Shown here one piece after another: positions 32,681 through 60,644 of a stretch of DNA of 64,000 nt. Numbering within the stretch: position 1 is the stretch's first letter; every line of letters starts with the position of its first letter. Location: NCBI GenBank assembly GCA_963809035.1, contig CAWEHV010000002.1, forward strand, positions 1,312,113-1,376,112, written 5' to 3'. The notes below the pieces were generated by a model, which made no database searches, was not told where the DNA came from, and saw only the letters and a program-made list of their open reading frames with translations. Source of the stretch: an uncultured Thermoplasmata archaeon. Lineage in GTDB: Archaea > Thermoplasmatota > Thermoplasmata > Lutacidiplasmatales > UBA184. A program made the position numbers and the translations under genes.

Positions 32681-33004
32681 TCCTGGGTCATCGCACGCCT
32701 AGGTCTCTCCCGGCCGCTCCTCCCCACCGTCGTCGCTCGCGTGAGCGACAACGAGGTCGCGGGCCGCCGAAATCGCGACCGCTCGCCCCCGGGGGATCAC
32801 AATAAGCACCCGTTAAGGGCGGAGGGTATTCGCTCGAGTGCCGGGCCCGAAGCGACGTCCGCGACGGAGACCCCCGCTCCCCCCTCCGATTTGCACCTGC
32901 TCGGCCGAATCATTCAAGTACCTCTACGCCCGAGTGTATCGACGTGGGCTGAGAGCCCTCCCGGGGGCTGCGAGGAGTTGAGCCGCTTCAAACTGACTGC
33001 TAGA

Positions 33005-33616
33005 ATGCGCCGAGGGGCGCGGAAGCGCGCGGTTTCGCCCATCATCGCAACGATCTTGCTAGTCGCCATCACGGTAGTCTTGGCCGCCGTTCTGTATGTG
33101 ATGGTTTCCGGACTGATCCGCGGTCCGGGGTCCACGCCGATTGGAACCGCATTCGCCGCCGGCCATCCCGTTACCGGCACCTGCGCGGCAGGAAGCTCAC
33201 AGACTCTTGGTGCGGCAGCGATAACGGGTGGCTGCAAGCCGGGGGACTTCGTTTACACCCTCACGGTCGAATCGTCAACGGTTTCGCTCGGCAGCGTCCT
33301 CTTCGAGGTCAGGACCTCCGCGGGAGTAGCGTACGCAGCGGGTGGGGCGAGTTCCTCCTTCTCAGTGGTGGACGTCACCAGCCATGTCGCGGCGATCAGC
33401 GTGACCGGTTCAATGATGGCCATGACTTCGACGTGGCAGGGCTACGGTCTCACGACCACGGCCCCGACATACAAGGCGTCCACCCCGATCACAAACCTGC
33501 ACATCATAGTAGTGGACATGGGCTCCGCGTCGGTGACCACCGGCCAGGGTCTCAAGTTCGTCGCGCTGGGAACTGGCTCCTACACGGGAGTTACCGGCCC
33601 AATCGACCTACCGTAG
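33005..33616 (+). CDS. Archaeal type IV pilin-like protein (class III signal peptide, Pilin_N/DUF361-type)
   Basis: 'MRRGARKRAVSPIIATILLVAITVVLAAVLYVMVSGL': basic N-terminus then the conserved 'VSPIIATILLVAITVVLAAVLY' hydrophobic segment, diagnostic of PibD/FlaK substrates. The ORF-track start at 32741 is an upstream extension; ATG at 33005. Confidence 0.8.
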   Translation: MRRGARKRAVSPIIATILLVAITVVLAAVLYVMVSGLIRGPGSTPIGTAFAAGHPVTGTCAAGSSQTLGAAAITGGCKPGDFVYTLTVESSTVSLGSVLFEVRTSAGVAYAAGGASSSFSVVDVTSHVAAISVTGSMMAMTSTWQGYGLTTTAPTYKASTPITNLHIIVVDMGSASVTTGQGLKFVALGTGSYTGVTGPIDLP

Positions 33617-36077: not shown

Positions 36078-36293
36078 ATGATGGGCGGCGCGAGCACCTC
36101 GGTGAGGGTCTCTCACGAGACCTTGCGCGAGCTCGAGCGGCTACGCCGGGCGTTCCAGGTTCAAACGGCAGAAGAGACCATACGCGAGCTCATTCGAGAG
36201 CGGAAGTTCCGATCCCTTGCCCGCCTATTCGGGAGCGGAAAGGGAGTCGTCGCACCATTCACGGAGGACGACCGCCTTGATTCTCACTATTGA
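36078..36293 (+). CDS. vapB: VapB-type antitoxin (pair 1)
   Basis: 'SVRVSHETLRELERLRRAFQVQTAEETIRELI...FTEDDRLDSHY'; paralog of the 37775-37984 protein; overlaps the downstream PIN gene by 17 nt. Confidence 0.65.
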   Translation: MMGGASTSVRVSHETLRELERLRRAFQVQTAEETIRELIRERKFRSLARLFGSGKGVVAPFTEDDRLDSHY

Positions 36294-36684
36294 TACATTC
36301 GCCTGGGTCGAGATGATACGAGGAAGCCGCCTGGGGAGTCGAGCTCGGGAAGCGATGGAGGGCACGGAGCGCTGCCTAACGCCCTCCGTCGTGGTGGCCG
36401 AAGTCGCCTCCAAGTGCGTCAGGGATGCTCTTCCCGATTCGCTCATCAGGCGAGAACTCCAGGCCATCCGCGAATCTTCGGAGGTGGTACCCATCGACGA
36501 TTTCATTGCGACCGCAGGTGCCCACGCTTTCGATGAGCTTAGACAAATCGCGCAGGAACAAAGCCTTCAACGACCCGGGCTGGCGGACGGTCTCGTTCTG
36601 GCCACGGCTCGAAGGTCAGGCGCCAGATTGCTCACCGGAGACCCGCACTTCCGTTCCTTCCCTGAGACCATCTGGTTGGCTTAA
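36277..36684 (+). CDS. vapC: PIN-domain toxin VapC (pair 1), TTG start
   Basis: 'LILTIDTFAWVEMIRGS' (PIN N-terminal acidic motif), '...TPSVVVAEVASK...', 'TGDPHF' C-terminal PIN motif. Confidence 0.7.
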   Translation: MILTIDTFAWVEMIRGSRLGSRAREAMEGTERCLTPSVVVAEVASKCVRDALPDSLIRRELQAIRESSEVVPIDDFIATAGAHAFDELRQIAQEQSLQRPGLADGLVLATARRSGARLLTGDPHFRSFPETIWLA

Positions 36685-38751: not shown

Positions 38752-38961
38752 TCAGGACCGGTCCTCTTCGTCTCGCAAGCCCCGGGTCGTCAATCCCGGG
38801 ACCATCCCCTTTGTCTTCGATAATGGGCGAACGGGGACGAAGTACAGAATCCCATGCTTCATGAGGGCGGCCATTTTGTCCCCCGGGTGGATTCGTCCGC
38901 CACGACGCAATTTCTCTGGGATCACGACCTGATACTTCGGGGATACCGTGACGGTCTCCAT
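38752..38961 (-). CDS. vapB: AbrB/MazE-type antitoxin (pair 3)
   Basis: 'TVTVSPKYQVVIPEKLRRGGRIHPGDKMAALMKHGILYFVPV' has the SpoVT/AbrB swapped-hairpin signature; 11 nt upstream of the PIN gene. Confidence 0.65.
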   Translation of the reverse strand: METVTVSPKYQVVIPEKLRRGGRIHPGDKMAALMKHGILYFVPVRPLSKTKGMVPGLTTRGLRDEEDRS

Positions 38962-39130
38962 CGATGCCTCTAGTGTTCAACAGGAAGATGGTCGATATAA
39001 AAGTACCGGAGTCGATGGAAGTTGGGTCGATGCCAGCGCGACGTTTGGGCGCTCCTCGACCCGATACACGAGGAACCCCCCCCCCAGCAGGTCCGACCGG
39101 GAAGAAACACCCCCGTTCGCAACCGAGCCG

Positions 39131-39820
39131 ATGCCTTCTTACTGGGGCGCCCATCGGTGGGACACCCCCGTGGCAGCTCCCACCAGCTCGATAGCGAAAC
39201 CAAGCGACACGCTCCCCCGGCCCCGCCCGCGGATCGAATCACTCTCCGACATGGTGTTCGGCCTCGCCCTTTCGGTGGGTGCCCTGGCCCTCGTCGCCAC
39301 TCCCCCGACCTCCTCCGAGCAGCTGTACTCGGACATTGTGACGTTCGGGTTCAGCTTCCTGATCCTGATCATGGTCTGGTTTTCCTACACACGGATCATG
39401 TCCGAGATGACCTTCGAGGACCACCGGACGCTGACGTTGAACACCGTCCTCCTGTTCACGGTCTCGGTCGAGCCGTTCCTCTTCAACCTCCTCCATTCGG
39501 CCAACCACCTCAACGGGTTCTTCAACGCGGCCAGCCAAGCCTATGCCGTGGACCTCGGCCTCATGATGGTCATCTTGGGGTTGTTCGCGTGGGGGCTATC
39601 GGTATCGACGCAACCCCCGCTCGCCCTGTCGGTCCGGACGGGTTTCCGAGCCGAAGCCATCAATCGGTGGGTGGCCGCCGGTATCTTTTTCGTGACGGTC
39701 GCTCCTGTGTTCGATCAGGTTTCGGTCGGCCCCGAGCCCCTCCGGATCTGGCTGTGGCTCATCCCGCTCTTCTTCTTCGCTTTCGCCCGCCGTACCCGTC
39801 GGAAGGCTGAAGGTCCCTGA
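39131..39820 (+). CDS. DUF1211 (TMEM175-like) membrane protein
   Basis: 'RIESLSDMVFGLALSVGALALV' matches the RxxxFSDGVFAIAxTLL signature; ~6 TM helices; start taken at ATG 39131 to avoid overlap with the opposite-strand antitoxin. Confidence 0.55.
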   Translation: MPSYWGAHRWDTPVAAPTSSIAKPSDTLPRPRPRIESLSDMVFGLALSVGALALVATPPTSSEQLYSDIVTFGFSFLILIMVWFSYTRIMSEMTFEDHRTLTLNTVLLFTVSVEPFLFNLLHSANHLNGFFNAASQAYAVDLGLMMVILGLFAWGLSVSTQPPLALSVRTGFRAEAINRWVAAGIFFVTVAPVFDQVSVGPEPLRIWLWLIPLFFFAFARRTRRKAEGP

Positions 39821-40692: not shown

Positions 40693-40883
40693 CCCACGCC
40701 GCGGCGATAGGCCTGACGGGTTCGGTGTGAGGGGCACAGGCGAGCCATTGGGGGGCTGGGGGTGGGCCGGGAAGTCGGCCCTTGAGGCTTCGGATCCCGA
40801 GACGCCCGGGATTCCCAGATTCAAGGCTCCTCTACCTCCGCCCAAACGGTCTTAAAAGGGGAGGGCGCCGTGTTTAGTCGATT

Positions 40884-43800
40884 ATGGCCGACCGGCGAGC
40901 GGTGACCGTGGCTGTGACCTTGGTGATCGGAGTTCTCGGTACTCTCGTCGTTGGGCCTCCTGGCAGGGCTGGGAACCTCCCCTTCCGCAGCCCACGGGGC
41001 GGCGTTGCATGTGGCTTCCTCGCGCAGCACTGCTCCAGCCTCGGCTGGAGGCGCTCGCTCCCCTGGCGCCCTTATGGCATCCGAGCTGGGCTTGAACGGT
41101 GTCGGCGGCAACGCTCTCCCCAATCCGGTGGCGGTCGAGGCGCTCGCCCAGGCCAAAGCATCGGGGGTACCCACGACCGATGTCTTCGTCCCCCGCGCTG
41201 GAGCCACTCCGGCCGAGGTCGCCCAGTCCATGGCCAAAGGCCACGTTACGCCGCTTTACGGTGGGGACACTCCGGCCCCGATCGGTCTCGCTGACTACGG
41301 TCTCTCCGCCAACCCGAACGGCAACGGCAGTATCGTGCCCTCGATCCTCAACACGCCCAGCGTGAAGGCCACTTTCGCCCCCAATGCGACCGGCATCCAG
41401 CCCCTCTACCCGTTCGACAGCACACCGGACGGCTACGGAGTGCAGCTGAACGCCGTCACGACCAACATCAGCCTCCTTGGCAACTCGAGCTACTCGTTCT
41501 GGACGCAGAATGTCGTGGAGTACTTGGCCCACGCGCACGAGCTGATCCTCGTCACGAACGTATGGAACTTCTCGAGCCCCTTGTCCTCGCTCTCAGCGAA
41601 CGCCATCTACCAGCACGGCGCCTACGGAACGCAGGTCGGCACCGAACTGTACTACGCCGAATATCCGGTCCTGACCTCGATCACCTATCCGTTCAGCGTG
41701 GACCTTTGGATGAACAACTCCGTCATCTCCGGGCGCAATGCCGTGAATTTCACGGTGGCGTTGAATGAGAGCGGCGTCACGACCGTCTTCCCATACGACT
41801 ACGTCATCTTCAACTCGACCAACCTGACCTCCGGACCGGCGCCTCCGTCGAACTACACGGCCAACGGCTACCAGTACAATCCCCTCGGACTCACGGATGA
41901 CTTCGAGGTCGTTCTGGGAGGCCCGGGCGGCGGGTCCCAGGCCAACCTGTATGCGGCGGATGCGAACTTCACCCTCCAGTATTGGAACATCTCCTCCTCC
42001 TCGTACAAGACGGTCCCTAGTGCTTTCTCCTACGGCGGCGAGACCGGGGAGACCGTCACCGGTGCGTACGTCGGGTGGCACAACGGGACGAACGGAGCCC
42101 CCTATGGGGCCGTCCGAACCGGTCCGTCGATGCTGGTCGGGCTCTGGAACGCGACCGGGGCCCCGGGCTTGGGTCAGGTCAGTCTGACGCTCTCACCGGA
42201 GAATGCGTTCGTCTTCTTCGGCCCCAACTGGACGAGCAACTTCACCCAGGGGGACCTACCCTACTGGGCGCCTCAAGAGACGACCAATACCTTCTGGCTC
42301 GCCCCTGGGACGTACGACCTCACGGTCGCTCTGAGCGACTATTTCCCGGTGGTGCTGTCGGTGACCGTCACGCTCGGCTCGAACCCGATCAGTGCGACCC
42401 TGGCGCTCGACACCTTTGAGGGGATCTACACTCCGATCTGGGTCTGGAATAACGACCAGTACGCCGCCGTCTCGAGCGGCGGGAGCGGGACTCCGAGCGA
42501 CCCGTACCATATCTACAACGCTCAGACGAACTTCATGCCGAGCGTCTTCGGAACTTGGAACGATTTCGCGTTCCCGGTCTTCACCGGGGTGTTCCTCTTC
42601 GGCACGACCGCCTCGGTCGTACTTTCCAATATGTCGGCCCTGGTGACCAGCATGCCCTCCGGGCTGGCCGCCCCGACCGACTCCCTTGGCTACGTCTTCT
42701 ACAACGCCTCGAACGTGGCCCTGGTCAACTCGACCAACATCAGCGGCTGGTACTCGAGCGGGCTCTACGACCCGGTGGATGCCCCGGCCTTCGCCGGAAA
42801 CTACTACGGGACGTTCAGCGTCGTCCTGTGGGACTCGTCGGGGAACCTGATCGCCGACAACACGTTCGAAACGCAATCCGGCGGCCTCACTCTGTCCGGC
42901 GGATCGAGCAACACCGTCTTTGGCAACTCGTTCACGATGGTACCCTTCCCGACGTTCCCGCACCCGACCGTCCTGTCGGGCCTGAACCAGAGCCTCGGCC
43001 TGCAGGAGACGGAGAGCGGGGACCTGGTCTACGGCAATGCGTTCGACACGACCGTCACCGCCGTGACCGAACCCTACGATCTCTACAACGGGAATCCCCT
43101 CGCTCCGCTCGAGACATGGAACATCACCCCCACGCCGGCGGCGACGATCCACTACGCGACGAACTTCCCCGACTTCCCCCTCACCGGGACGATCGTTGGC
43201 AACTCGACCCAGGGCGGCAACTACTGGTGGGACTACGGCGGGGCCTCCAACCCCCTCGGCACCCTTCCCTACACCGAGGTCCTGGTCGGGATCTCCCAGA
43301 TCTTCACCGGCGGCGACTACTGGCCCCTCGTCGCACCCACGCCCGCGAGCTACCTGGCCGCGTTCACAGAGAGCGGGCTGCCGGCCAGCACACCCTGGGA
43401 GATCTACCTCGCCGGCACCCACCCCGGGTCGAACCGGACGATCCAGTTCGACCTCACCAACGGCAGCTACCCCTGGTCCGTCGGCGCGGTGAGCGGCTAC
43501 GTAGCCCTGCCTCCCAACGGGACCCTGGTGGTCGCGGGCGAGCCGACGAACATCACGATCGCCTTCACCCCGGCGGTGCCCCCGACGACCTACCGGGTGA
43601 CGTTCAGCGAGACCGGCCTACCGAACGGAACGGCCTGGGCGGTCATCCTGGGCAGCCAGACGAACTCGTCGACCACCACCGTTGTCACCTTCGAGGATCC
43701 GAACGGGACCTTCCCCTTCTCGTTCGGGAACGTGTCCGGGTATCGGCCGACCCCGGTGAACGGACAGGTCACGGTCCATGGGGCCGCCCAGGGCCAGAGC

Positions 43801-44754
43801 GTGGCCTTCGCTGCGAGTTCGCGGACCTACACGCTCACCTTCTCCGAGACGGGCCTGCCGACCGGGACGCTGTGGTCCGTGGCCGTCGGACTCTCGAACC
43901 TGAACTCCACCGGCCCCGAGATCAATTTCAGCGTGACTCCAGGGACCCATGGCTATGAGATCGGCACGGTCGCTGGATACCAGTCCTCGCCCGCGAGCGG
44001 GGCGACGACGGTCCTGGCCGCGAACCAGACGATCTTGGTGGCGTTCACCAAACTAGCGAGCGGGGAGTACACGGTGACCTTCACCGAGTCGGGCCTTTCC
44101 ACGGGCACCAGTTGGTCGGTGACGATTGGTTCGACCACCCAACCCTCGACGGGGACCACGGTCGTCTTCACCGAGCTCAATGGGACGTACGCCTACTCGG
44201 TCACCACGGTCCCCGGCTATACCCTCGCTAAGTCCTCCGGGTCGATCACGGTCTCCGGAGCGAACACGGGGACCGCCGTGGCCTTCTCCGCCATCCCCCC
44301 TGGGAAGTACGCGCTCACGTTCACGGAGAGCGGTCTACCCGGCGGGACGAACTGGTCCGTGACGATCGGCACCTCCACCGTCTTTTCGAACGGGGGGAAC
44401 GTGGTCGCCTTCCAAGAGGCGAACGGTACGGCTTCTTACCAGGTCGCGTCGGTCGACGGATATACGGCCAGCCCGAGCGCCGGCTCGGTGGACCTCGCGG
44501 GGGCGGCCAAGGATGTGGCCGTCACGTTCTCCAGCAGTGGATCCTCGGGCTCCTCCAGCAGCGGGCTGTCCACTCTGGACTGGACGATCATCGCGGTGGT
44601 GGTCTTGCTGATCGTGATCGCGGCGGTGTTCGCGCTCTCCCGTCGCGGGCGCGGTGGTCCGAGCGCTACCATTCCGCCGGAGGGCTCCCCCACGGAACCG
44701 GTCGAGCCCGCGGGGCCCGGCGGGCCTCCGGCGGGGGGCGGGGATACGCCGTAG
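40884..44754 (+). CDS. Thermopsin (peptidase A5)-like giant surface protein + beta-helix region + 7 'FxESGLPxGTxW' repeats + C-terminal TM anchor; signal peptide separated from the body by a 1-nt frameshift near 40938
   Basis: Frame 0 'MADRRAVTVAVTLVIGVL' and frame 1 'SSLGLLAGLGTSP' together match the paralog N-terminus 'MADRRVMLLTVTLVTLVMILSSLGLLSVGA'. 'FWTQNVVEYL...LVTNVWNFSS', 'FEVVLGGPGGGSQANLYAADANFTLQYW' and 'FSYGGETGETVTGAY' align with thermopsin blocks (YWLQDVGQF..IDNVWNLTG, AELVWGGGGNG.., FGADTAEAAYN). C-terminus 'SSSSGLSTLDWTIIAVVVLLIVIAAVFALSRRGRGG'. Confidence 0.7.
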
Positions 44755-44892
44755 TTGTGTCCGGGCGCCCCAAAGCACCACCGCTTCCTCGCTGCCCGCC
44801 TACGGCCGCCCCACGACGGTCTTTGTCACTGGAAGAACCCCTCGAGATCGAGACGCCGGTTTTGTCCGGATGGACGTTAAGTAGAGGGGGGC

Positions 44893-47800
44893 GTGTGGCC
44901 GGCCGAAATGGCCGACCGACGAGTGATGCTCCTGACGGTGACCCTAGTGACCTTGGTGATGATCCTCTCCTCCCTTGGACTTCTGTCCGTGGGCGCCCGG
45001 GCCCCGGCCGGCCCTTCGAGGCCCTCGGGGGTCTCCCCGCTGGTCTCCGCGCCCGCCCCGCCCTCCCCCGCCCGGCCCGCGTCAACCCCGGTGGGCTTGG
45101 CCCAGGCCGGTACCACCCTCCCCACAACCTCGACCGCAGTGACTCCCACCGAGGGCGTTAATCCCGCGGTCGCCAAGGCAAAGCTCCTCATCGCCGAAAA
45201 GAAGCTGAACCCGTCGAGCGTCTTCTTCCCCGCGGCGGCACCGGCCACCCCCCCGTCCTCGACGTCCTCCCTTACCACTGCCTACACCGGCAACCCCGCG
45301 CCGATGGGTCTCTCGGACATCGGGCTCGGCTCGTCCGGTCCCTACATTTACAATAGCTCGAGCTTCGAGGCCTCGATCCACCTCAATTCGTTCACGGACT
45401 ACAATCCCGGCTACTCCGGGTGGGTCGCTCCGCCGAACTACATGACCTGGCAGCTGAACACGGTCACGGTCAACGTCTCTTTTCCGGGATCGACCACCGG
45501 GGTCTTCTGGATGCAGAACGTCGTCCACTTCAATGGGACCTCGCTGCAGTTCGAGAACAACATCTGGAACATGTCCAGCTCGAACGCAGCGCTCAACCCC
45601 GGTACGCTCCTGAATTACAACGGTACCCTGGTCGCGGGCTCGTTCTACTACATCTACGGTCCGACCTTCCAGGTGACGTATCCCTTCACGCTGGACCTGT
45701 ACAACAACATCACCTCGCGGGGCGGGCACCCGGGGCTTTACTTCAACTACACTCTCACCAACACGACCACGGGATCCCACACCGGCTCGTTCGACTACGT
45801 GACCTTCAACGGGACGACCTCGCTGAGCGCTCCCCCGCAGTTCTCCGTGAACGGAAAGCACTACAACCCGTTCGGCGCCACTCCCTACCTGCTCTGGGAC
45901 GCGGAGCTCATCTTCGGCGGGAACGGGGGCGGTGCCAACGCGGTCATCACGAACCTCAACGGAACCTCCACCCTCCGGTTCTGGGACAAGACGGCCGCGA
46001 AGTACGAGAACGTCCGGTCCGCGTACGATTACGGCGTGGACACGGGCGAGACCGCCGACGGGGTCGCCGCGGCGTACCAGGGGACGACCGAACTCCTGAG
46101 CCAGGGGCCCTCGATGCTTTACGGGCTCTGGAACACCAGCGTCTCGTCCTGGGGGCCCGCGGCCAACCCGGGTTGGATCAACGTCGACCTGACCGGACAG
46201 CCGAGCTACGGGTTCGTCTTCGGCACGAACCAATCGTCCGCGAACTACCTGAGGGGCACCGGGAACTGGTCCTACTCCCCCTCGGGGGCGACCGGCACGA
46301 CGGTGACCCACCTGCCGCCCCCGGCCTCGGGGAACCCGTACGTCTTCCGGGCGTACGCGAACGGGTTCGGTCAGTCCAACCTCACGGTCAGCAACAACGC
46401 GTCCGGTGTAGCGGCGTTCTCGTTGGTGGCGAACTCTAAGTCGTTCGACACCCCCGTGTACCTCAGCACCACGGCCCAAGTGGCGGCGTTCGGTGCGGCG
46501 GGCCTGTCGGGCGTGACCTACTCTGCCCTGCACAACGGGCTCTGGATCAATAAGACGCAAGCTTCGTACGAGATCCCGTTCGACCTCCTGAACGATTTCC
46601 GGTACCCGGAATTCATGCTGTTCGCGGCCGACAACCTGTCCACGAACGTCTCGCTCAATCACTTCGTCCAGGACCCACTGACGTTCATCTACTGGAAGTA
46701 TGACGTCATCCGGGCCACGAGCTACTACGCGGACTTGACCCAGGGATACTTCTTCAACTACGGAACCGGCGTGTTCTCCGTGACGAACACGACGGTCGCG
46801 GGGAGCCCGTACCTCACCTACGACGCGGGCTTCACGGCGCTCTCCGCGGTCGAGTTCTGGCAAACCACGAACAGCCGGGCGGGCTGGATCATCACCAACG
46901 GGGACTCCTTCGGGGTCGACGTGATGAACAGCACCCGTGCGACCCTCTGGAACATCCAAGGAGAGACCGGCGCGAACGCGATCGCGGTCTTCTACTCGGA
47001 GTTCGTGACCGCCACGGACATCAGCTCCAACGGAACCGACCTCGGCGGCGGCGTGGCCGGCGTAACTCCCTTCCCGACGTGGGCGGCCTATCTCGAGCTC
47101 GACAGGTTCGTCTCCCTCAACGGGGTGACGGCCTCGAACGGCTCGGTCTGGGTATTCTCCGTAGATGATGGGGCCTTGGACCTCGTCAACTTCAGCGCCA
47201 CGAACAACGTCGTGCTGAACGGCGCAGGTCCCGAGTATGGGTTCATGGCTCTCTTCGAGGGCGACCTGGACGATACGCTTACCAACTGGGTGGCCACGAA
47301 CTCTTCGAGCTACTTCCCCTTTATCGCGACGTTCGTCGAGGTCGTAGGTCTCAGTGTGTACAATTTCAGTGTCTCGGGAGTGGCGCCGACGGGCACCCTG
47401 GATCCCGGCTCCCCGATCTACGGGATCGTGTTGGATATCCCATTCGGGTTCTACATCTCCGCGGAAGTCGACCTGGTCGACGTCACGGCCACGTTCGGCG
47501 CGGTCGCCGTCCTGGGCGAGTACGTCATCGGCCTGACCGTAGACGACATCACCGCGACCGCCGGAGGTTCCGCCGTGGTCTTGGAGGAGGCGGAAAATTT
47601 CGTCGCGTCCAACGTCAGCGCGTCGTCGGCGGGAATCGGCATATTCGTCGCCTTGGCGACCAACGTGACCGCATGGAACGTCACCTCCAGCGCCGGATCG
47701 GTCGGCGTTTTCGTCGAGGGGGCCGTCAATGTCGATGTTTGGAACGTCAACGCGACCTCTCCCAGCCTTGGCCCCGCATATTTCAGCAACGTTGCCCTCA

Positions 47801-49878
47801 ACGGAATGATCCCGAACGCCGGGGTCGCCCTGTTCGAGAACGAGAATGAGACGGTCTCCAACGTCTCGACGGTCGACTACGCCTACGGCGTCTGGGACAA
47901 CTCCTCCGCGGACGGGGTCGCCTTCTCGAACATCACGTCGTGGAACGGCGGCACCGCGGTCGCGTTCAACGGTACCAACGGGGCCACCGTATCCTCCGTG
48001 TTCGCCTACGGCAACCAGTGGGGCGCGACGTTCCTCAACACGACCGCCACGACCGTGACCGCGAGCACCTTCGAGGGCTCGGCGAGCTACGGAGTGACCG
48101 TGACGGGGGGAAGTGGGTTCGTCGCCTACGGGAACAACTTCGTGGCGAACAACGGAGCCTCCACGAACGGCACGTTCAACGCCGCGACCGTCCAAGCCTC
48201 GGTGTTCTTGCCCTCGGCGATGTTCACGTACCTCGGGATCGGCAACTACTGGTCCGACTGGGACGGCTCGGGATCCTACACGATCAACGGCGCGGTGTCC
48301 GACACGGCACCGCTCGCTGCCTTCATCTCGAGCTGGCTCGAGATCAACGAGACCGGCCTCCCGGCGGGCTTCGCCTGGGGATTCACCCTGGACACGGTCG
48401 ACTACACCACCTCCGCCCCCCTCGTGTTCATCCCGAGCTGGAGCCTCGCGGACGCGACGCTCGGGTTCGTCGTGAACCCGCCCACCGGCTACACGCCCAC
48501 GCCCGCCTCCGGGACGATCCCGTACGCCGGCGCGAACACGACGGTGACCATCTCGTTCGTGAAGGCGCACTACAACGTAGTGTTCCAAGAGAGCGGCCTT
48601 CCCTCGGGCACGACCTGGAGCGTCACGTTCAACGGGACGACCCTGCAGGACACGACGGTCGGAAGCACCGGGTCGATCACGTTCTCGGTGTACGACGGCA
48701 GCTATCCCTACACCGTCGGGTCGGTGACCAACTACAACTCCGCTCCGTCGAGCGGGACGAAGGCCGTGTCGGGAGCCAACGTGAACGTGCCGATCGTCTT
48801 CACCCACGTGCCTGTGGCCTACTCGGTGACCTTCACCGAGTCGGGTCTGGTGCCGGGAACGTCCTGGTCGGTCACGCTCGGGTCGAGCACGAAGTCGTCC
48901 ATGAACACGACGATCGTGTTCTCCGAGCTCAACGCGAGCTACATCTACACCATCCCGAACGCCGACGGCCTCATACCGGCCCCTAGCGCGGGAACGATCG
49001 CGGTCAACGGGACGAACACGGGGCTGTCGGTCGTCTTCACCGCCGCCCCGGTGGGGACCTACGCGGTGGTGTTCAACGAGGCCGGCCTGGGACCCGGCAC
49101 CAACTGGTCGGTGACGATCGGTTCCTCGACGTTGTACTCTCGCGGGGGGACGAGCGTGACCTTTGAGCTCGTCAACGGCTCGTACACCTACCTGGTCAAC
49201 GCGGTCCCCGGCTACAAGATCGAGCAGGTGAGCGGTAGTGTGCAGGTGACGGGTCAGCCCCAATCATTCACCGTCACCTTCGTCGCTACCCCGTTCACCT
49301 ACACGATCACCTTCGCGGAGACCGGACTTCCGAGCGGCACCGACTGGTCGGTGACGATCGGGACCACGACGCACTACTCGGACGGGAACGCGACCGTCAC
49401 CTTCCAGGAAGGGAACGGGACGTACAGCTACCAGGTCGGGTCGGTCACGGGCTACTCGGTCTCGCCGTCGAGCGGCCCCCTCACCCTGACGGGCGCCGGG
49501 ACGAGCGTGAATCTCGCGTTCACGAGCACGGGCTCCAGTTCCTCGTCCTCCGGGCTATCGACCCTCGACTGGGCGATCATCGGGATCGTCATCGCGATCC
49601 TCGTGATCGTCCTGGTCGTGGCCCTGGTGATGCGCGGACGCGGCGGGTCGGGGTCCGGAGCGACCACTGACACCACCTCGACGACGACCTCCGACGAGAC
49701 GGTGAGTCCAGAACCGTGGGCGGAGGAAAGCCCCCCGGAGAGTCCCCCTAGTTCCCTGAACGGGAACCGGGACCAACCCTTTCCTCTCCTTTCTTCCCGA
49801 ATGCATCCGACCGCTGGACCGCTGCCTCAGCGTGCCTCGAGACCTTGGACCCGGGCGGAAAGGGTTGGAGACCGGTAG
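44893..49878 (+). CDS. Thermopsin (peptidase A5)-like giant surface protein (1661 aa) with extended parallel beta-helix region, 7 'FxESGLPxGTxW' repeats and C-terminal TM anchor
   Basis: 'VFWMQNVVHFNGTSLQFENNIWNMSS', 'LWDAELIFGGNGGGANAV', 'YDYGVDTGETADGVAAAYQG'. Middle region has N/G/S/T-rich beta-helix-like repeats. C-terminus 'SSSSSGLSTLDWAIIGIVIAILVIVLVVALVMRGRGGSG'. Confidence 0.75.
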   Translation: MWPAEMADRRVMLLTVTLVTLVMILSSLGLLSVGARAPAGPSRPSGVSPLVSAPAPPSPARPASTPVGLAQAGTTLPTTSTAVTPTEGVNPAVAKAKLLIAEKKLNPSSVFFPAAAPATPPSSTSSLTTAYTGNPAPMGLSDIGLGSSGPYIYNSSSFEASIHLNSFTDYNPGYSGWVAPPNYMTWQLNTVTVNVSFPGSTTGVFWMQNVVHFNGTSLQFENNIWNMSSSNAALNPGTLLNYNGTLVAGSFYYIYGPTFQVTYPFTLDLYNNITSRGGHPGLYFNYTLTNTTTGSHTGSFDYVTFNGTTSLSAPPQFSVNGKHYNPFGATPYLLWDAELIFGGNGGGANAVITNLNGTSTLRFWDKTAAKYENVRSAYDYGVDTGETADGVAAAYQGTTELLSQGPSMLYGLWNTSVSSWGPAANPGWINVDLTGQPSYGFVFGTNQSSANYLRGTGNWSYSPSGATGTTVTHLPPPASGNPYVFRAYANGFGQSNLTVSNNASGVAAFSLVANSKSFDTPVYLSTTAQVAAFGAAGLSGVTYSALHNGLWINKTQASYEIPFDLLNDFRYPEFMLFAADNLSTNVSLNHFVQDPLTFIYWKYDVIRATSYYADLTQGYFFNYGTGVFSVTNTTVAGSPYLTYDAGFTALSAVEFWQTTNSRAGWIITNGDSFGVDVMNSTRATLWNIQGETGANAIAVFYSEFVTATDISSNGTDLGGGVAGVTPFPTWAAYLELDRFVSLNGVTASNGSVWVFSVDDGALDLVNFSATNNVVLNGAGPEYGFMALFEGDLDDTLTNWVATNSSSYFPFIATFVEVVGLSVYNFSVSGVAPTGTLDPGSPIYGIVLDIPFGFYISAEVDLVDVTATFGAVAVLGEYVIGLTVDDITATAGGSAVVLEEAENFVASNVSASSAGIGIFVALATNVTAWNVTSSAGSVGVFVEGAVNVDVWNVNATSPSLGPAYFSNVALNGMIPNAGVALFENENETVSNVSTVDYAYGVWDNSSADGVAFSNITSWNGGTAVAFNGTNGATVSSVFAYGNQWGATFLNTTATTVTASTFEGSASYGVTVTGGSGFVAYGNNFVANNGASTNGTFNAATVQASVFLPSAMFTYLGIGNYWSDWDGSGSYTINGAVSDTAPLAAFISSWLEINETGLPAGFAWGFTLDTVDYTTSAPLVFIPSWSLADATLGFVVNPPTGYTPTPASGTIPYAGANTTVTISFVKAHYNVVFQESGLPSGTTWSVTFNGTTLQDTTVGSTGSITFSVYDGSYPYTVGSVTNYNSAPSSGTKAVSGANVNVPIVFTHVPVAYSVTFTESGLVPGTSWSVTLGSSTKSSMNTTIVFSELNASYIYTIPNADGLIPAPSAGTIAVNGTNTGLSVVFTAAPVGTYAVVFNEAGLGPGTNWSVTIGSSTLYSRGGTSVTFELVNGSYTYLVNAVPGYKIEQVSGSVQVTGQPQSFTVTFVATPFTYTITFAETGLPSGTDWSVTIGTTTHYSDGNATVTFQEGNGTYSYQVGSVTGYSVSPSSGPLTLTGAGTSVNLAFTSTGSSSSSSGLSTLDWAIIGIVIAILVIVLVVALVMRGRGGSGSGATTDTTSTTTSDETVSPEPWAEESPPESPPSSLNGNRDQPFPLLSSRMHPTAGPLPQRASRPWTRAERVGDR

Positions 49879-54807: not shown

Positions 54808-57597
54808 CTAGGCGGACCCGCCCTCGGACCCGGGTCCCGACCCCTCGGTGGGGAAGGGGTTCTCCTCGTACAGCTGCGCCCGGGGGGGTTCCCTCGCCCG
54901 GCGCCGCAGGTTGACCACCGCGACCGTCCCGACGACGACCACCACGATGTCCATGGCCAGCAGCAGGTAGTCGACCGGCCCGAACGCGAAGGGGGAAGGG
55001 ACGGTGGAGATAGCCACGAAGCTCAGGTACAAGGCCACGGGCGCCCCGTAGACCCCGAAGGATCCCTCGTCACGGGCCGAGGCGTAGCCGGAGACGCTGG
55101 TGACCCGGAAGAAGTGCGTGCCGTTCGGCTCGAGGAATACCATGGCGGGGCTGTTCGTATCCTGCTGGATGCTGTCCACGGTGGCGAACCAGACCGCTCC
55201 GTAAGGAAGGCCGGACTCGGTCAGCGTGACCCGGTACGTCGTCCGGATGAAGGTGGCCGCGAGCGCGGGGCCGGCCCCGTTGACGACGAACGTCACCCCT
55301 TCCACCGCCCCCTCGAAGGTCTTGTTCGCGCTGTCGACGAAGTACTGGTAGGACCCGTTCGTCAGGTTGAGCTCCACGAGCGTTCCTGTCGAGTTCACCG
55401 GTGCGTTGGCACTGAGATTGAGGTACCAAAGGGTTCCGGTCGGAAGGCCCGACTGTTGGAACGTGACCAGGTACGTCTCCGCGATGAACAGGACGGAGAC
55501 CGTCCCCTGGAGGTAGTTGGTGACGTACGCCCGGCCACTGACGGAATCGAAGGCCAGATCTCCCGGCCCCGCGCCGACCGGGACGGTCGCCACGACCGAC
55601 CCGAGGGAATCGGAGATGACGCTCACGTCGTCCTGGACGAGCGAGCTCGTGACCAGCACCTCCCCGGTCCCCGGGTCATACGCGGCACTTTCCGGGTGAC
55701 CCGGCATCGGGATCGCCCCCACGACCGCGTCGGTACGGTCCGAGATGATGCTGACGTTGTCGTCGAGGGAGTTCGCGACGAAGACCTCGGCTTGTCCGCT
55801 GTCGTACGCGATACTGACGGGGTTCGCACCGACCGAGACGGTCCCCACGACCCGGTTCGTGACGTCCGACACGACCGAGACGTTGCTCGAGAAGTAGTTC
55901 GCGACCATGACCTCGTGGCGTCCGGCGTCGTAGGCGATCCCCTCCGGGTGGTCGCCCACCGAGAACCGGGCGAGGACCGTGTTCGTCAGGTCCGAGATGA
56001 CGCTCACCTGGTTCGAGGCCCCGTCACTGACGAAGACCTCGCCCCGATCGGCGTCGTACGCGAGCCCGTCCGCGCCGCCCCGGACCGGGATAGTCGCGAC
56101 CACGGCGTTCGAGGCATCCGAGATCACGCTCACGACATTGGAGGCAGCGTACCCCACGAAGACCTCCCCGGTCCCGCCGTCGTAGGCGATGGCGTCGGGA
56201 AAGCTCGGGACCGCGACCGTGGCCACGATCGTGTTCGATACGCCCGAGATGACGCTCACCGTGTTCGAGAACGCGCTGATGACGAACGCCTCGGCCGCGC
56301 GGGTGTCGTAGGCCACCGCCACCGGCTCCGCCCCGACCGGGACCGTCGCCACCACCTCCTCGGACACATCGGAGAGGACGCTGACGTTGTTCGAGTCCGA
56401 GTTGGCGACGAAGATCCGGCCGGCGTTCCCGTCGTAGCTCATCCCCGCGGGCCCGCTCCCGACCGGGACCGAGCCCGCGATCCGGTTCGTACCGCCAGCG
56501 ATGAGGCTCACGTTGTTGGATCCGTGGTTGCCGACCACCACGTCCCGGGTGCCGGAATCGAACGTGACGCTCTGCGGTTGGCTGCCGACCGGGACGGTCG
56601 CCACGACCGTATCGGTCGAGTCGGACACGACACTGACGTTGTCCGAGCCGGAGTTGGTCACGAAGATCGTGCCGGTCAGGTCGTCGTACGCCACCGCGAC
56701 CGGATCGGTTCCGACCGGAACGGTCGCGAAGAGAGCCCCGGTCCCCACGGTGAGGACGCTGACGGTATCTGAACGGGAATTGCTGACGAAGAGCTGGTTC
56801 GTCCCGCTGTCGAGGGCGATCCCGGAGGGTCCGTCGCCCACGGGGATCAGACCCACCACGCCATCGGTCGTATCCGAAATGACGGTGACATTGCCCGTCG
56901 CCTGGTTCACGACGAACACCTCCCCCGCCGGACCGTCGACCACGGCCGCCACGGGCGAGCCTCCGACCGGGATGGTCTGGACCACCGTGTCCGAGGCGTC
57001 GGAGATCACGCTGACGCTCCCCGACCCGCTGTTCGTGACGAAGACCTCTCCCCGGCTCGCGTCGTAGGCCCCTCCGGTCGGACTTTCGCCGGTCGCGATC
57101 GTGCGGACCACGGGTTGGCTTCCGGAGGAGAAGACGGCCACGTTCGAGGAGTAATAGTTCGCGACGAAGACCTGGGCCGTCCCCCCATCGTAGACGAGCC
57201 CTTCCGGTGAGGCACCGTTCTCGGCCAGGAAATCGCCGGGAAGGAGGCTGTCGTTGAACAGGACGAGCGTTCCGGAGACGTACGGCCGTTGGGGGCTGAC
57301 CGAAGGGTGGGGCGCGAGCGGGGGCGGAGGTACCGCCGAAACCGCCGAGCCGCCGGAGCTCACTGGCTCAGAGGTCGCCCCGAGCGCGAGGCCCCGATCC
57401 ACCCCCAGAGTCCCTGGGGGTCCTCCGGAGGCCCCTGGGGGAGCCGGGGCATGGGCCAGCAGAACGAGGGCGACGAACCCACTAAGAATCACGACTCCGA
57501 CGGTCCCCAGGGCGACGGTCCCGGAAACCGTGCCCCGAGCCGGCCAGCGTTCCGGCGTCTTCATCTCGGGCGCGTCGGGGGGACGCAGGAGACCCAA
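54808..57597 (-). CDS. Surface protein with >=14 YVTN beta-propeller repeats, 3 'FxxSGLPxGTxW' modules and C-terminal TM + Arg tail
   Basis: N-terminal TM 'VALGTVGVVILSGFVALVLLA'; repeats 'VVxTIxxGxxPxGxAYDxxRGEVFVTN'; C-terminus 'VDYLLLAMDIVVVVVGTVAVVNLRRRARE'. Confidence 0.8.
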   Translation of the reverse strand: MGLLRPPDAPEMKTPERWPARGTVSGTVALGTVGVVILSGFVALVLLAHAPAPPGASGGPPGTLGVDRGLALGATSEPVSSGGSAVSAVPPPPLAPHPSVSPQRPYVSGTLVLFNDSLLPGDFLAENGASPEGLVYDGGTAQVFVANYYSSNVAVFSSGSQPVVRTIATGESPTGGAYDASRGEVFVTNSGSGSVSVISDASDTVVQTIPVGGSPVAAVVDGPAGEVFVVNQATGNVTVISDTTDGVVGLIPVGDGPSGIALDSGTNQLFVSNSRSDTVSVLTVGTGALFATVPVGTDPVAVAYDDLTGTIFVTNSGSDNVSVVSDSTDTVVATVPVGSQPQSVTFDSGTRDVVVGNHGSNNVSLIAGGTNRIAGSVPVGSGPAGMSYDGNAGRIFVANSDSNNVSVLSDVSEEVVATVPVGAEPVAVAYDTRAAEAFVISAFSNTVSVISGVSNTIVATVAVPSFPDAIAYDGGTGEVFVGYAASNVVSVISDASNAVVATIPVRGGADGLAYDADRGEVFVSDGASNQVSVISDLTNTVLARFSVGDHPEGIAYDAGRHEVMVANYFSSNVSVVSDVTNRVVGTVSVGANPVSIAYDSGQAEVFVANSLDDNVSIISDRTDAVVGAIPMPGHPESAAYDPGTGEVLVTSSLVQDDVSVISDSLGSVVATVPVGAGPGDLAFDSVSGRAYVTNYLQGTVSVLFIAETYLVTFQQSGLPTGTLWYLNLSANAPVNSTGTLVELNLTNGSYQYFVDSANKTFEGAVEGVTFVVNGAGPALAATFIRTTYRVTLTESGLPYGAVWFATVDSIQQDTNSPAMVFLEPNGTHFFRVTSVSGYASARDEGSFGVYGAPVALYLSFVAISTVPSPFAFGPVDYLLLAMDIVVVVVGTVAVVNLRRRAREPPRAQLYEENPFPTEGSGPGSEGGSA

Positions 57598-57702
57598 GGG
57601 GCATGGACGTTATCTGACCTTCGAGGGCCAGGAGACCTTCGTCGGCTCACCCCTCCCACCTCCGGGGCGTGCGGCGGGTGGGGTCGATACGGCCGCGCGC
57701 GG

Positions 57703-60459
57703 TCACGGGGCTTTGAACCAATCGGGGTCGGGTTTCCGACGCCTCTGGCGCCAGACGGCCCAGGAGATCAGAACGGCCACGGCGGCGACGATTCCCAGCA
57801 ACTCCGCCACGAGCGTCTCGGTCTGGGACCCCGGGGAGGGGCCCACGGCCCCAGGGGGAGGCTGGAAGCTGACCGGGATCGTCCCCGCCGGTGGTCCGTC
57901 GACCCGGACGGAGCTATTGGACGGCGAGGCGACGTATCCGCGGACCGGATCCACGACGTACCCGTACGACCCATTGGTCATCTGTGCAAACTCGATGGAG
58001 GGGGTCGTGCTGGATAGGAAAACCCCGTTCAGGACCACCGACCAGCTCGTGCCCGGCGGAAGACCGCTCTCGACGAACCCGAGGGTATACGTCGTCGGAA
58101 CGAAGACGACCTCCTCACGGACCGCCCCTCCTTCGACCTGGAGCGTTCCGCCCGCGAGGGTCGGATGGTAGATCGAGTTCGGAGTCCCGATGGAGTAGGA
58201 ATAGGTCCCGTTCGTGAGGTTGATCCACGCCGAGGTCGTCGCGGTGAGGACGGGTAGCTCGCCACTGACATTGAGGGACCACACCTGGCTCGTGGTAAGC
58301 CCGGTCTCGTTGACGGTCAACAGATAGGTCGTCGGGCCGGCCGAGAGCAGGGAGAGGGTGCCCTGAGCGTAATCACTGACCGCGAACTGCTCCACCGCTG
58401 GGTCCCAGGCCACGCCGCGAGGGCTCGCTCCGACCGGGACGGTCGCGATCACGGAATTCGTCGCGTCCGACAGTACGCTCGTGTTCGCCGAGGCGTCGTT
58501 GGCGACCGCGACCTCCCCCAGCCCCGGGTCGTAGGCGACCCCCTGGGGGGCGGACCCGACCCGGACGGTCGCGACCAGGGCGTCGCTCCGGTCGGAGAGG
58601 ACGCTGACGGTGTTGGAATCCTGGTTCGCGACGAACACCTCCCCCCGGGTCGAGTCGTACGCGAGACCATCGGGGTACGTCCCGACGGGGATCGTCGCTA
58701 CCACCCGGTTCACCGTGTCCGAGATCACGCTCACGTTGTCCCAGCCGACTCCGGGCTGCGTCACGAACACTTCTCCCCGCCCGCGGTCGTACGTCACCGC
58801 GTCCGGGGCACCTCCGACCGGGATCGAGCTCACCACGGTGTAGCTCGAGTCAGAGATCACGCTCACGGTGTTGGAGACCTCGTCGGCCACGAAGATCTCC
58901 CGAAGGCCCCCGTCATAGGCGAGCCCTGCGGGGCTCCCCGGAGAGGGCACGCTCGCGACGACCTGATCGCTCTGGTCGGAGATCACGCTGATCGTGTCCG
59001 AGCCCGTATTCGCCACGAAGACCTCCCGGGCCGCGGGGTCGTAGGCCAGCGCGCTCGGATCGAGGCCGACCGGGATGCTCGCCACGACGGTTCGGCTCGT
59101 ATCGGGGACGACCAACACTCGGTCGGTGGTGTAATCGGTGACGAACATCTCGCCCATCGCGGTATCGTACGCCACCGCGTCGGGGTACGAACCCACGGCG
59201 ACGGCGGCGATCTCGTTATACAACAGGTCCGAGAGCACGGTGACGCTGTTGGGAAAATAGCTCACGACGAAGATCTCCCCTCTTCCGGAGTCGTACGCCT
59301 CGGCCACAGGGGTCGTCGCCACCTGGGGGCTCGCGACGACGGTCGTGTTGGCCCCGAGGATCACGCTCAGGTTGCTCGACCCGTAATTGGCCACAAAGAC
59401 CTCCCCCCGCCCCGGGTCGTAGACCGTCGCAAGCGGGTTGGTTCCCACGGTCACGGTGTGCACGATCTGGTCGTTCGCGTCGGAGACCACGCTGACCGTA
59501 TCCGAGGCGTAGTTGGCCACATAGAACTCCGAGTTCTCCGTGTCGAACGCGACGGATACGGGATGTCTACCCGTCGTGACGCTCGCGACGACCGAATTGG
59601 TCACGTCGGAGATCACGCTCACGTTGTCCGAATCGTAGTTGGCTACGAACACCTCCTCGGGGGTCGGGCCATAGGCCAGGGCGTCCGGATCCCGGGCCGT
59701 GGCCACCGTCGCCACGACCGAGTCGGTGACGTCCGAGATAACGGATACATTGTCCGACCCCGAGTTCGCGACGAAGACCTCGGCCAGGCGGGGGTCGTAC
59801 ACGACCGCGCTCGGAGTGAATCCCACTGGAACCGTCGCGACGACCTGATCGTTCGCCCCGTCGATGACGCTCACATTGGCCGAATACAGGTTCGCTACGA
59901 ACACCTGGCCGGTGCCCGTGTCGAAGGCGTCGGCGTCGGGGTAGGTCCCGACCCGCACGGTCGCCACGACCTCGTTGAGAGCATCGGAGATGATGCTGAC
60001 GCTGTCGGTGGCGAAGTCGCAAATGAAAACCTGGCCGGTCGTGGAGTCGTACGCCGCGCCGTCGGGATCCGCCCCATTCCCGGCGAGGAAGTTACCGGGC
60101 AGTACGCTGCTGTTGAACAACACGACGGTCGCGGCCACGTGGGGAGCGTCGGCTCCGGGTCCCGAAGCCCTCCGCGTGCCGGGGGGCGAGGGAGGTGCGC
60201 TCGAGCCGAGGGTCCCATGGAGGGCGGGGACCCTGGGTCCAGGGCTCCCAGCATGGCCTGGAGCAGATTGAGAGACCTGGATCGGACTGGTCGGTGCCCT
60301 CCAGCCGTCAGGGACAACGCTTGGAATGGTTGGCAGACCCGGGGCCGTGATCAGGAAGGCTCCCGCAATAGCGATGGAGAGCGCCACCCGGAGGTGGAGT
60401 CCATGCCGCCCCGGGTGGTTCGGCCGTTCCATCCAACGTCCTCCCTGAGGGCAGGTCAC
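57703..60459 (-). CDS. Surface protein paralog: >=14 YVTN beta-propeller repeats, 3 C-terminal repeat modules, C-terminal TM + basic tail
   Basis: 'LRVALSIAIAGAFLITA' signal/TM; YVTN repeats throughout; 'YLLTVNETGLTTSQVWSLNVSG', 'YTLGFVESGLPPGTSWSVVLNG'; C-terminus 'LLGIVAAVAVLISWAVWRQRRRKPD'. Confidence 0.8.
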   Translation of the reverse strand: MTCPQGGRWMERPNHPGRHGLHLRVALSIAIAGAFLITAPGLPTIPSVVPDGWRAPTSPIQVSQSAPGHAGSPGPRVPALHGTLGSSAPPSPPGTRRASGPGADAPHVAATVVLFNSSVLPGNFLAGNGADPDGAAYDSTTGQVFICDFATDSVSIISDALNEVVATVRVGTYPDADAFDTGTGQVFVANLYSANVSVIDGANDQVVATVPVGFTPSAVVYDPRLAEVFVANSGSDNVSVISDVTDSVVATVATARDPDALAYGPTPEEVFVANYDSDNVSVISDVTNSVVASVTTGRHPVSVAFDTENSEFYVANYASDTVSVVSDANDQIVHTVTVGTNPLATVYDPGRGEVFVANYGSSNLSVILGANTTVVASPQVATTPVAEAYDSGRGEIFVVSYFPNSVTVLSDLLYNEIAAVAVGSYPDAVAYDTAMGEMFVTDYTTDRVLVVPDTSRTVVASIPVGLDPSALAYDPAAREVFVANTGSDTISVISDQSDQVVASVPSPGSPAGLAYDGGLREIFVADEVSNTVSVISDSSYTVVSSIPVGGAPDAVTYDRGRGEVFVTQPGVGWDNVSVISDTVNRVVATIPVGTYPDGLAYDSTRGEVFVANQDSNTVSVLSDRSDALVATVRVGSAPQGVAYDPGLGEVAVANDASANTSVLSDATNSVIATVPVGASPRGVAWDPAVEQFAVSDYAQGTLSLLSAGPTTYLLTVNETGLTTSQVWSLNVSGELPVLTATTSAWINLTNGTYSYSIGTPNSIYHPTLAGGTLQVEGGAVREEVVFVPTTYTLGFVESGLPPGTSWSVVLNGVFLSSTTPSIEFAQMTNGSYGYVVDPVRGYVASPSNSSVRVDGPPAGTIPVSFQPPPGAVGPSPGSQTETLVAELLGIVAAVAVLISWAVWRQRRRKPDPDWFKAP

Positions 60460-60644
60460 GTCAGCGGAACCCGGAACAGCTCTTCTAGGCTTCTGGGCGC
60501 ACCGTCGGCGGGGCGCCCAGCGACCATCGCCAGGTCGACTGGACCACCCCAGGATCGATTGGGGGCCTCAACGTGAGCCGGGCCCTTCGGCGCTGCTTCG
60601 GTCGGTCTCCGGGGCTTCCAGGGCGGGGAGAGACGCATGCATTC

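Follow-up and report, generated by a model that had tools for sequence, protein, structure and literature searches.

What purpose do two adjacent genes for giant proteins with a thermopsin-like head serve in an archaeal genome, and is that head still a peptidase? The question is raised by a 64,000-nucleotide stretch of DNA from an uncultured Thermoplasmata archaeon of the UBA184 lineage (GenBank assembly GCA_963809035.1, contig CAWEHV010000002.1), hereafter the window, on whose plus strand open reading frames (ORFs) of 1267 and 1661 amino acids (aa) lie side by side at 40951-44754 and 44893-49878. Both ORFs are real, as a preliminary description made from the DNA letters had claimed, and we refer to the genes as gene 1 and gene 2 and to their products as P1 and P2. 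The reading that we favor, with a probability of roughly 60%, is that P1 and P2 constitute a pair of surface-displayed acid peptidases that are membrane-anchored and glycosylated. From the N-terminus onward each protein would consist of a signal sequence with a conserved arginine pair, a Pro/Ser/Thr-rich pro-region or linker, the thermopsin (A5) head, a small beta-sandwich, a NosD/CASH beta-helix, five Ig-like repeats, a Ser-rich linker, one transmembrane (TM) helix and a short cytoplasmic tail, an order that supports in outline the earlier idea of a cell-anchored protease or protease-like surface protein.

The family membership of both heads is evident from profile searches, in which Pfam PF05317 covers nearly its whole length in either protein (P1, 173.6 bits over profile positions 10-255 of 256; P2, 179.4 bits over positions 5-256 of 256; cutoff 25 bits). 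The sequence blocks that had first drawn attention to a thermopsin-like head are present in P2 as FWMQNV...NNIWNMSS, DAELIFGGNGGG and GVDTGET and in P1 as the variants FWTQNV...TNVWNFSS, DFEVVLGGPGGG and GGETGET. The two heads are 35% identical to each other, the C-terminal repeat regions being ~40% identical, and both are homologous over their whole length to the type thermopsin of Sulfolobus acidocaldarius, at an identity of only ~27%. For the latter we used the entry P0082 ('thermopsin precursor [S. acidocaldarius DSM 639]', 340 aa), whose residue numbering agrees with every residue named by Rawlings and against which the P2 head scores 55.6 bits with phmmer over residues 20-282 of the 290-residue query.

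Eight polar residues, namely Q109, N111, Q128, N148, D228, D257, E259 and E305 in thermopsin numbering, are common to thermopsin, P1 and P2 and are essentially invariant in the family, each being found in at least 74 of the 79 heads from related loci; this degree of retention argues for purifying selection on what is probably a functional site in the head. According to Rawlings (2013; PMC3842238) neither the fold of thermopsin nor its catalytic residues are established, the candidates being D129, D144, D228, D257 and D302 plus Q109, N111, Q128, N148 and E305. A search for absent catalytic residues, as put forward in the preliminary description, is for this reason ill-posed and admits no strict answer, although it can be stated that all the family-invariant polar residues are kept in both copies. 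As for the candidate aspartates, D228 and D257 are retained in P1 and P2, whereas D129 is replaced by N in both proteins (and is N in 73 of the 79 heads), D144 by T in P1 and by N in P2 (across the 79 heads D 61, N 8, T 8, Q 2) and D302 by E in P1, P2 keeping its D (D 65, E 7, N 6). Such variability across divergent heads argues against D129, D144 and D302 as catalytic residues and would leave Q109, Q128, D228, D257, E259 and E305 as the candidate set, Q128, E259 and E305 corresponding to Q208, E338 and E386 of P2; the alignments give no indication that either P1 or P2 has lost the putative functional site. The combination T144/E302 is fixed in all seven proteins of the P1 lineage, the window copy included.

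The head as modeled by AlphaFold2 (AF2) is a concanavalin A (ConA)-like beta-sandwich with a predicted local distance difference test score (pLDDT) of 83 and a predicted template modeling score (pTM) of 0.87. Its neighbors among solved structures are HC7 (8pmu, DUF3472; score 14.6), an uncharacterized Bacteroides protein (4qhx; 13.1), YncM (4hfs; 11.1), neprosin (7zvc/7zu8; 10.7) and aspergilloglutamic peptidase (1y43_B; 8.9), followed by many GH16 and lectin folds, and Foldseek independently ranked 4qhw and HC7 at the top. HC7 is a mucinase of the di-glutamate type from Bacillus cereus (PMC13003899, citing Narimatsu et al. 2024), and three glutamate-type peptidase families accordingly figure among the closest solved folds of the modeled head. 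HC7 (8pmu/8pn3), neprosin (7zvc, family G3) and aspergilloglutamic peptidase (1y43, family G1) share the beta-sandwich with the P2 head model at 7-11% identity in the structural alignments, which makes this a link by fold alone. Q109 and Q128 fall at ~22-29% of the mature chain and D228 and E259 at ~62-73%, much like the positions of the catalytic pairs of neprosin and the eqolisins, a weak lead only. A profile of 30 heads retrieved no peptidase at E <= 10 from all PDB sequences, the P2 sequence itself had no meaningful match among all PDB chains, and no solved thermopsin structure was found there. In the literature searched thermopsin is tied to this fold nowhere except in Rawlings' 2013 discussion, and a literature search on DUF3472 by name yielded no functional information. 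Thermopsin is, moreover, pepstatin-sensitive, whereas G1 enzymes are not (PMC3842238). We regard it as rather improbable that the pair forms a two-subunit, glycan-guided surface glycoprotease in which the heads are of the glutamate rather than the aspartic type, the CASH helix binds glycans and P1, with its T144 and E302, is a specialized or regulatory partner; HC7, neprosin and the eqolisins would then be the fold relatives of the head, while its MEROPS classification as A5 implies an aspartic peptidase instead.

The AF2 model of P2 residues 392-1560 (pLDDT 83) comprises a small beta-sandwich, a long beta-helix and five 7-stranded beta-sandwich domains, and the helix at residues ~620-1140 (model residues ~230-750) is predicted at pLDDT >90 over ~520 residues. 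Profiles match the same region of P2 (NosD, 24.3 bits in the whole protein and 30.1 bits in the excised region, cutoff 23.6 bits; Beta_helix, 24.2 bits). In P1, where the helix region is ~330 residues shorter, NosD reaches 18.5-23.1 bits, under that cutoff, and TIGR03804 PbH1 22.6 bits, over its own of 19.45 bits. The beta-helix-like region of the preliminary description is thereby supported in both proteins, and the structure prediction that it had proposed returned for P2 a ConA-like head and a confidently modeled helix, for which Foldseek retrieved AlgE4/AlgE6, 8jaz, NosD (7o0y_A) and PfbA, each at probability 1.0, and phage tailspikes.

Since the helix is the largest and best-modeled domain of P2, it might be the main module of the protein, be it as a glycan-binding adhesin or as a polysaccharide-active enzyme (lyase, epimerase or hydrolase), with the head as an accessory or a glycoprotein-directed peptidase. 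The resemblance to mannuronan C-5 epimerases, alginate epimerase/lyase, the PfbA adhesin and phage depolymerase tailspikes points in this direction, as do the stretches NNFVANNGAS and GNYWSDW at the C-terminal end of the helix, which are conserved across P2 orthologs, and the glycan dependence of HC7, the head's closest solved neighbor, a mucinase that operates together with a carbohydrate-binding module (PMC13003899). However, we identified none of the catalytic constellations of polysaccharide-active families, similarity to those enzymes is low by Foldseek (target TM-scores of 0.3-0.37), and many purely structural surface proteins likewise have the NosD/CASH fold; the much shorter helix of P1 and the widely varying helix length among homologs are the pattern of a spacer. 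We consequently hold such a role to be quite unlikely. In a surface peptidase the helix would be a rigid spacer and possibly a glycan-binding module.

Both proteins continue into a stalk of ~80-aa repeats, of which seven had been described; a motif scan and a repeat hidden Markov model (HMM) find five in each of P1 and P2 and no copies beyond these. Foldseek likens the P2 stalk to the tandem CnaB/Ig-like shafts of Gram-positive pilins and adhesins (TIE, PitA, SpaA, SdrD). A Pfam scan of the excised stalk at E <= 1 gave sub-threshold hints only (DUF5979, SpaA, Y_Y_Y and DUF1214) and no Pfam family, PKD being without a match and Y_Y_Y reaching E 0.081 and 13.3 bits, under its 26.6-bit cutoff; judging from these searches, the repeats belong to an undescribed family. 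The membrane anchor that had been proposed is present in both proteins as a hydrophobic C-terminal helix of 19-21 residues, with a Ser-rich linker ahead of it and RRGRGG (P1) or RGRGG (P2) behind it, and a search of NCBIfam with P1 and P2 at E <= 0.01 detected no C-terminal sorting domain of the PGF-CTERM/archaeosortase type. Immediately before the helix stands a juxtamembrane G-L-S-T/D-L-D-W segment (44560-44580 and 49549-49569), which recurs at ~30290 in an NHL propeller protein of the window. GLSTLDW as a general new sorting signal was rejected, since it occurs in only 24 of 342 retrieved homologs, all of them close relatives. At the other end, the N-termini (40884-40900 and 44908-44925) carry a twin-arginine signature, MADRR plus a hydrophobic stretch, that is kept in the alignment consensus of the orthologs. 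The ectodomains contain 38 and 46 N-glycosylation sequons in the two proteins, no cysteine, 7-7.5% charged residues and ~41% S/T/N/G, with an isoelectric point of ~4.1, a composition that fits acid-exposed surface glycoproteins.

The stalk is by no means confined to the pair. The same 'ESGLP' repeat occurs in 13, 4, 2 and 2 copies in four other very large secreted proteins of the window, and searching with the repeat by itself yields more than 435 further protein clusters, nearly all of them unnamed Thermoplasmata proteins without a Pfam domain. Because other surface proteins of the window carry the stalk and anchor under different heads, the combination is a generic surface-display cassette of the organism, unspecific to a protease-adhesin complex; the only hint that bears on the 'complexes' of the preliminary description is the conservation of the tandem pair across species.

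Nor is thermopsin known only as a free ~30-kDa enzyme, as that description had assumed, anchored multi-domain forms being on record (PMC3958906, PMC6712394, PMC12207459; bioRxiv 10.1101/2023.10.27.564410). Thermopsin itself is a 340-aa precursor without extra domains, to which P1 and P2 add the beta-sandwich, the beta-helix, five repeats and the TM anchor; it is secreted and rich in N-glycosylation sequons, as are P1 and P2, for which export is predicted. Closer in plan are SsMTP (120 kDa) and SsMTP-1/SSO1175 (75 kDa) of S. solfataricus, multi-domain proteins with a predicted C-terminal TM anchor that were purified from culture supernatant and are active at pH 2, the latter enzyme having its optimum at pH 2 and being insensitive to pepstatin (PMC3958906). 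Their architecture is thermopsin plus PKD, Y_Y_Y or RPT repeats plus TM (PMC3958906), a part order followed by P1 and P2, although the signal sequence of P1 is broken by a frameshift in the window. M164_1049 of S. islandicus and Saci1846 of S. acidocaldarius are secondary anchors of the surface layer (S-layer) with Ig-like domains (PMC6712394, PMC12207459), and this whole group, cell-associated and N-glycosylated (PMC3958906, PMC6712394, PMC12207459), shares with P1 and P2 a signal sequence, a thermopsin-like domain, tandem beta-sandwich/Ig-like repeats and a C-terminal TM segment. Unlike P1 and P2, the Sulfolobus proteins measure 600 to ~1300 aa, lack a beta-helix, belong to a different phylum and have repeats annotated as PKD, Y_Y_Y or RPT where the stalk repeat of P1 and P2 matches no Pfam family; the comparison is one of architecture. 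In Nanobdella, proteins with thermopsin, Ig-like and C-terminal TM parts occur, and beta-helix proteins are separate (bioRxiv 10.1101/2023.10.27.564410). Entries from Thermoplasmata metagenome-assembled genomes (MAGs) named 'thermopsin family protease' (for example P0018, P0019 and P0030), by contrast, have the same full architecture, are 39-99% identical to P2 and represent orthologs or paralogs of the two genes, with no essential difference and with the tandem arrangement in several genomes. The literature searched contained no experimental study of these entries and no description of a thermopsin head fused to a long CASH beta-helix, abundant as such proteins are in databases.

The S-layer proteins raise the possibility that P1 and P2 play a structural role in the envelope, as S-layer-associated stalks or anchors or as the main glycoprotein coat, the head being a binding or lattice-contact module and not an enzyme, as has been suggested for Saci1846 and M164_1049 of the Sulfolobales. 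The plan of N-terminal signal, Ig-like domains and C-terminal TM segment is like that of SlaB and Saci1846 (PMC12207459), the N-glycosylation potential is very high, the stalk/anchor cassette is common to many other surface proteins, the window is rich in envelope genes and harbors a glycosyltransferase island, and the lineage-fixed changes in P1 affect two of Rawlings' candidate Asp positions. Yet the invariance of eight polar residues of the head in ~79 divergent sequences goes beyond the usual need of a scaffold, SSO1175, a homolog of the S-layer-associated M164_1049, is an active protease (PMC3958906), which means that the two roles do not exclude each other, and an S-layer in this lineage would itself have to be assumed. 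On balance we deem a primarily structural function unlikely.

Under the surface-peptidase reading, P1 and P2 would be exported, by way of Sec or Tat, and held in the membrane by the C-terminal helix as heavily N-glycosylated, acid-stable type-I proteins, the stalk and beta-helix would keep the peptidase head at a distance from the membrane, and the head would cleave extracellular proteins at low pH and thus serve peptide scavenging. Support comes from Sulfolobus, whose multi-domain thermopsins with a predicted anchor are proven acid proteases (PMC3958906), and related soil Thermoplasmata (Lutacidiplasmatales) have been reported to depend on extracellular peptidases of the thermopsin, S53 and A4 families (PMC9287336). 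Several observations nevertheless weigh against it: peptidase activity in the Thermoplasmata clade is predicted, catalytic competence being argued from conservation only; the homologs Saci1846 and M164_1049 have a demonstrated structural role in S-layer anchoring (PMC12207459, PMC6712394); substitutions affect three of the five aspartates on Rawlings' list (D129 and D144 in both proteins, D302 in P1); the neighboring ORFs scanned include no peptide transporter; and gene 1 is without an in-frame signal peptide in this assembly. The structural or S-layer role and the glycan-directed one are the main rivals to a surface peptidase, and they are not mutually exclusive.

The last of these objections concerns the gene models. 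The position 40884 with which the preliminary description let the pair begin is indeed the true start codon of gene 1, where the N-terminus reads MADRR..., but its frame differs from that of the 1267-aa ORF: owing to an extra G in the signal peptide, 18 N-terminal codons are out of frame with the remainder. A contig of a Joint Genome Institute (JGI) metagenome, L001, which has the same gene order and is 98.74% identical to the window over 15 kb, lacks the extra G and has an intact gene 1 ORF of 1289 aa. Gene 2 we place at ATG 44908 because its orthologs begin with MADRR..., and a missing C at its other end abolishes the stop used by three database orthologs (P0001-P0003, ...ESPP*), appending 42 unrelated residues to P2. 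Altogether, comparison of the window with L001 over 15 kb turns up six single-base indels. Several fall in homopolymer runs, which points to homopolymer errors in one assembly or the other, and on this ground we favor sequencing or assembly error over genuine pseudogenization for the indels of both genes. The remaining four indels lie at 39076, 40746, 50331 and 51846, and one of these four is in a C9/C10 run within a TMEM175-like gene (38948-39820), for which two overlapping ORFs in different frames are listed.

It is somewhat unlikely, therefore, that gene 1 is a pseudogene in this genome, with a real +1 frameshift that would leave gene 2 as the only functional copy. The extra G does cut the MADRR... 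signal peptide off from the rest of the ORF, and the longest in-frame ORF begins at a TTG inside the hydrophobic core, such that its product would not be expected to be exported; against this, the remaining 3.8-kb ORF is undamaged, with a GC content at third codon positions (GC3) of 0.87, L001 (98.7% identical) keeps an intact gene, gene 2 too has a 1-base indel in a C-run, and the number of single-base indels relative to L001, with several in homopolymers, is what assembly or sequencing error typically produces. In two MFD MAGs (L015, 3224-5798; L019, 4553-6536) the P1-like gene, situated upstream of its P2-like neighbor, is likewise split into two overlapping ORFs, reflecting either assembly indels again or recurrent decay of the short paralog. 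Both genes are preceded, 31-32 nt before the ATG, by closely similar TTAA-rich and G-rich elements, suggestive of separate archaeal promoters that may have been duplicated along with the genes. A 1393-aa ORF antisense to gene 2 (45082-49263, minus strand) is most likely an artefact, because long stop-free antisense frames are expected where the coding-strand GC3 is 0.89.

The architecture, which had been presented as unusual, is common in the lineage. Homologs of P2 form 81 protein clusters, ~70 of which combine Thermopsin with NosD/Beta_helix at 1100-2160 aa, and some of the database entries already bear the name 'thermopsin family protease [Thermoplasmata archaeon]' or 'Thermopsin/NosD'. When the ortholog alignment was used as the query with one genome per species, 74 loci were found to carry the architecture, all but one (L041, 'MAG: bacterium') from MAGs labeled Thermoplasmata, Thermoplasmatales or Thermoplasmataceae archaeon. 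A profile of the head retrieves 1439 representatives (50% clustering, E <= 0.001); among the best 150 of these, 127 are at least 1000 aa long, the median being 1274 aa, 120 contain the stalk repeat and 80 a C-terminal TM-like segment. The isolate names of many loci indicate peat and soil surveys (SPRUCE, JOPF, MFD, SMAG). UBA184 is among the records and belongs to the Lutacidiplasmatales, a high-GC order of acid soils (PMC9287336); the host is probably a mesophilic acidophile of soil or peat and not a thermophile.

The tandem arrangement of a short and a long paralog recurs in at least six species-level genomes, with orthologs 41-57% identical; it is found in L001, L002, L004, L006 and L013, is fragmented in L015 and L019 and has its order reversed in L007. 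Because the pair is conserved across species and the P1 lineage shares T144/E302, the duplication is old and both copies are maintained, P1 and P2 being ancient paralogs.

The surroundings of the pair (Table 1 includes the proteins that share its stalk) comprise a glycosyltransferase island at ~9.7-22.6 kb, with a GC content of 0.52-0.55 as against 0.60-0.69 elsewhere in the window. It contains genes for a methyltransferase and several glycosyltransferases of families GT4 and GT2, besides numerous ORFs without a Pfam match, and may be a laterally acquired island for glycosylation or surface polysaccharide. Further genes specify a Kelch and PKD-repeat surface protein (60645-63281, minus strand), a protein with an archaeal type IV pilin N-terminal domain (32681-33616, plus strand) and a PIN-domain protein (36106-36684, plus strand), L001 having two PIN genes upstream of the pair. 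Scans of the window for tRNAs and Rfam families found nothing.

Table 1. Positions in the window of the two thermopsin genes, their parts, their indels and the other proteins that carry the stalk repeat.
Feature	Position	Strand	Remarks
Promoter-like TATA/B recognition element (BRE)-type element	40852..40867	+	TTAAAAGGGGAGGGCG; 32 nt upstream of gene 1 ATG; read from sequence
Gene 1 (P1, short paralog)	40884..44754	+	1289 aa once frameshift corrected; L001 ortholog 3865-7734 intact
Extra G in gene 1 signal peptide	40938	+	Window GTTCTCGGTAC vs L001 GTTCTC-GTAC; causes frameshift
P1 thermopsin (A5) domain	41263..42063	+	Residues 105-371 of listed ORF; Pfam PF05317, E 7e-51
P1 middle region, beta-sandwich and short NosD/PbH1-type beta-helix	42148..43350	+	Pfam stretch residues 623-764; fold predicted from P2 homology
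P1 stalk, five tandem ~80-aa beta-sandwich repeats (YxxTFTESGLPxGTxWSV...)	43351..44547	+	Residues 801-1199; repeat HMM, each E 1e-31 to 1e-34
P1 C-terminal TM helix	44581..44637	+	WTIIAVVVLLIVIAAVFAL; Ser-rich linker before, RRGRGG and Pro/Glu-rich tail after; read from sequence
Promoter-like element	44877..44893	+	TTAAGTAGAGGGGGGCG; 31 nt upstream of gene 2 ATG; putative function
Gene 2 (P2, long paralog)	44908..49878	+	1656 aa as assembled; orthologs 1614 aa, stop ~42 codons earlier
P2 thermopsin (A5) domain	45271..46065	+	Residues 127-391 of listed ORF; PF05317, E 1.2e-52; modeled head 45208-46152
P2 small beta-sandwich after head	46165..46452	+	Residues ~425-520; AF2 strands at model residues 38-117
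P2 right-handed parallel beta-helix (NosD/CASH type) and N-terminal cap region	46453..48330	+	Residues ~521-1146
P2 stalk, five tandem ~80-aa beta-sandwich repeats	48331..49539	+	Residues 1147-1549; AF2, five 7-strand domains
P2 C-terminal TM helix	49570..49632	+	WAIIGIVIAILVIVLVVALVM; RGRGG and Thr/Ser/Glu/Pro-rich tail after
1-base deletion (missing C) in C-run of gene 2	49743	+	vs L001
Phosphoesterase/cupredoxin-like protein	18-5123	+	13 stalk repeats; TM anchor not seen
NHL/YncE beta-propeller protein	27153-30371	+	4 stalk repeats, similar C-terminal TM anchor
NHL/YncE beta-propeller protein	54808-57609	-	2 stalk repeats, similar TM anchor
NHL/YncE beta-propeller protein	57703-60567	-	2 stalk repeats, similar TM anchor

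These findings show that the gene content of the locus is ordinary for its lineage, giant anchored forms being the commonest among the best 150 thermopsin-head representatives, and that the thermopsin family reaches far beyond hot acid habitats into the Thermoplasmata of peat and soil, where a reusable cassette of stalk repeats and anchor, for which there is no Pfam model, appears to mount various enzymatic heads on the cell surface. What the analysis mainly contributes is the relationship, at the level of fold, to glutamate-type peptidases and the shortened list of catalytic candidates, both of which bear on the mechanism of the only peptidase family that is restricted to archaea. Should the heads prove to be glycoproteases of the glutamate type, the many Thermoplasmata members of the family would lead directly to the catalytic mechanism of thermopsin, a problem that dates back to 1990.

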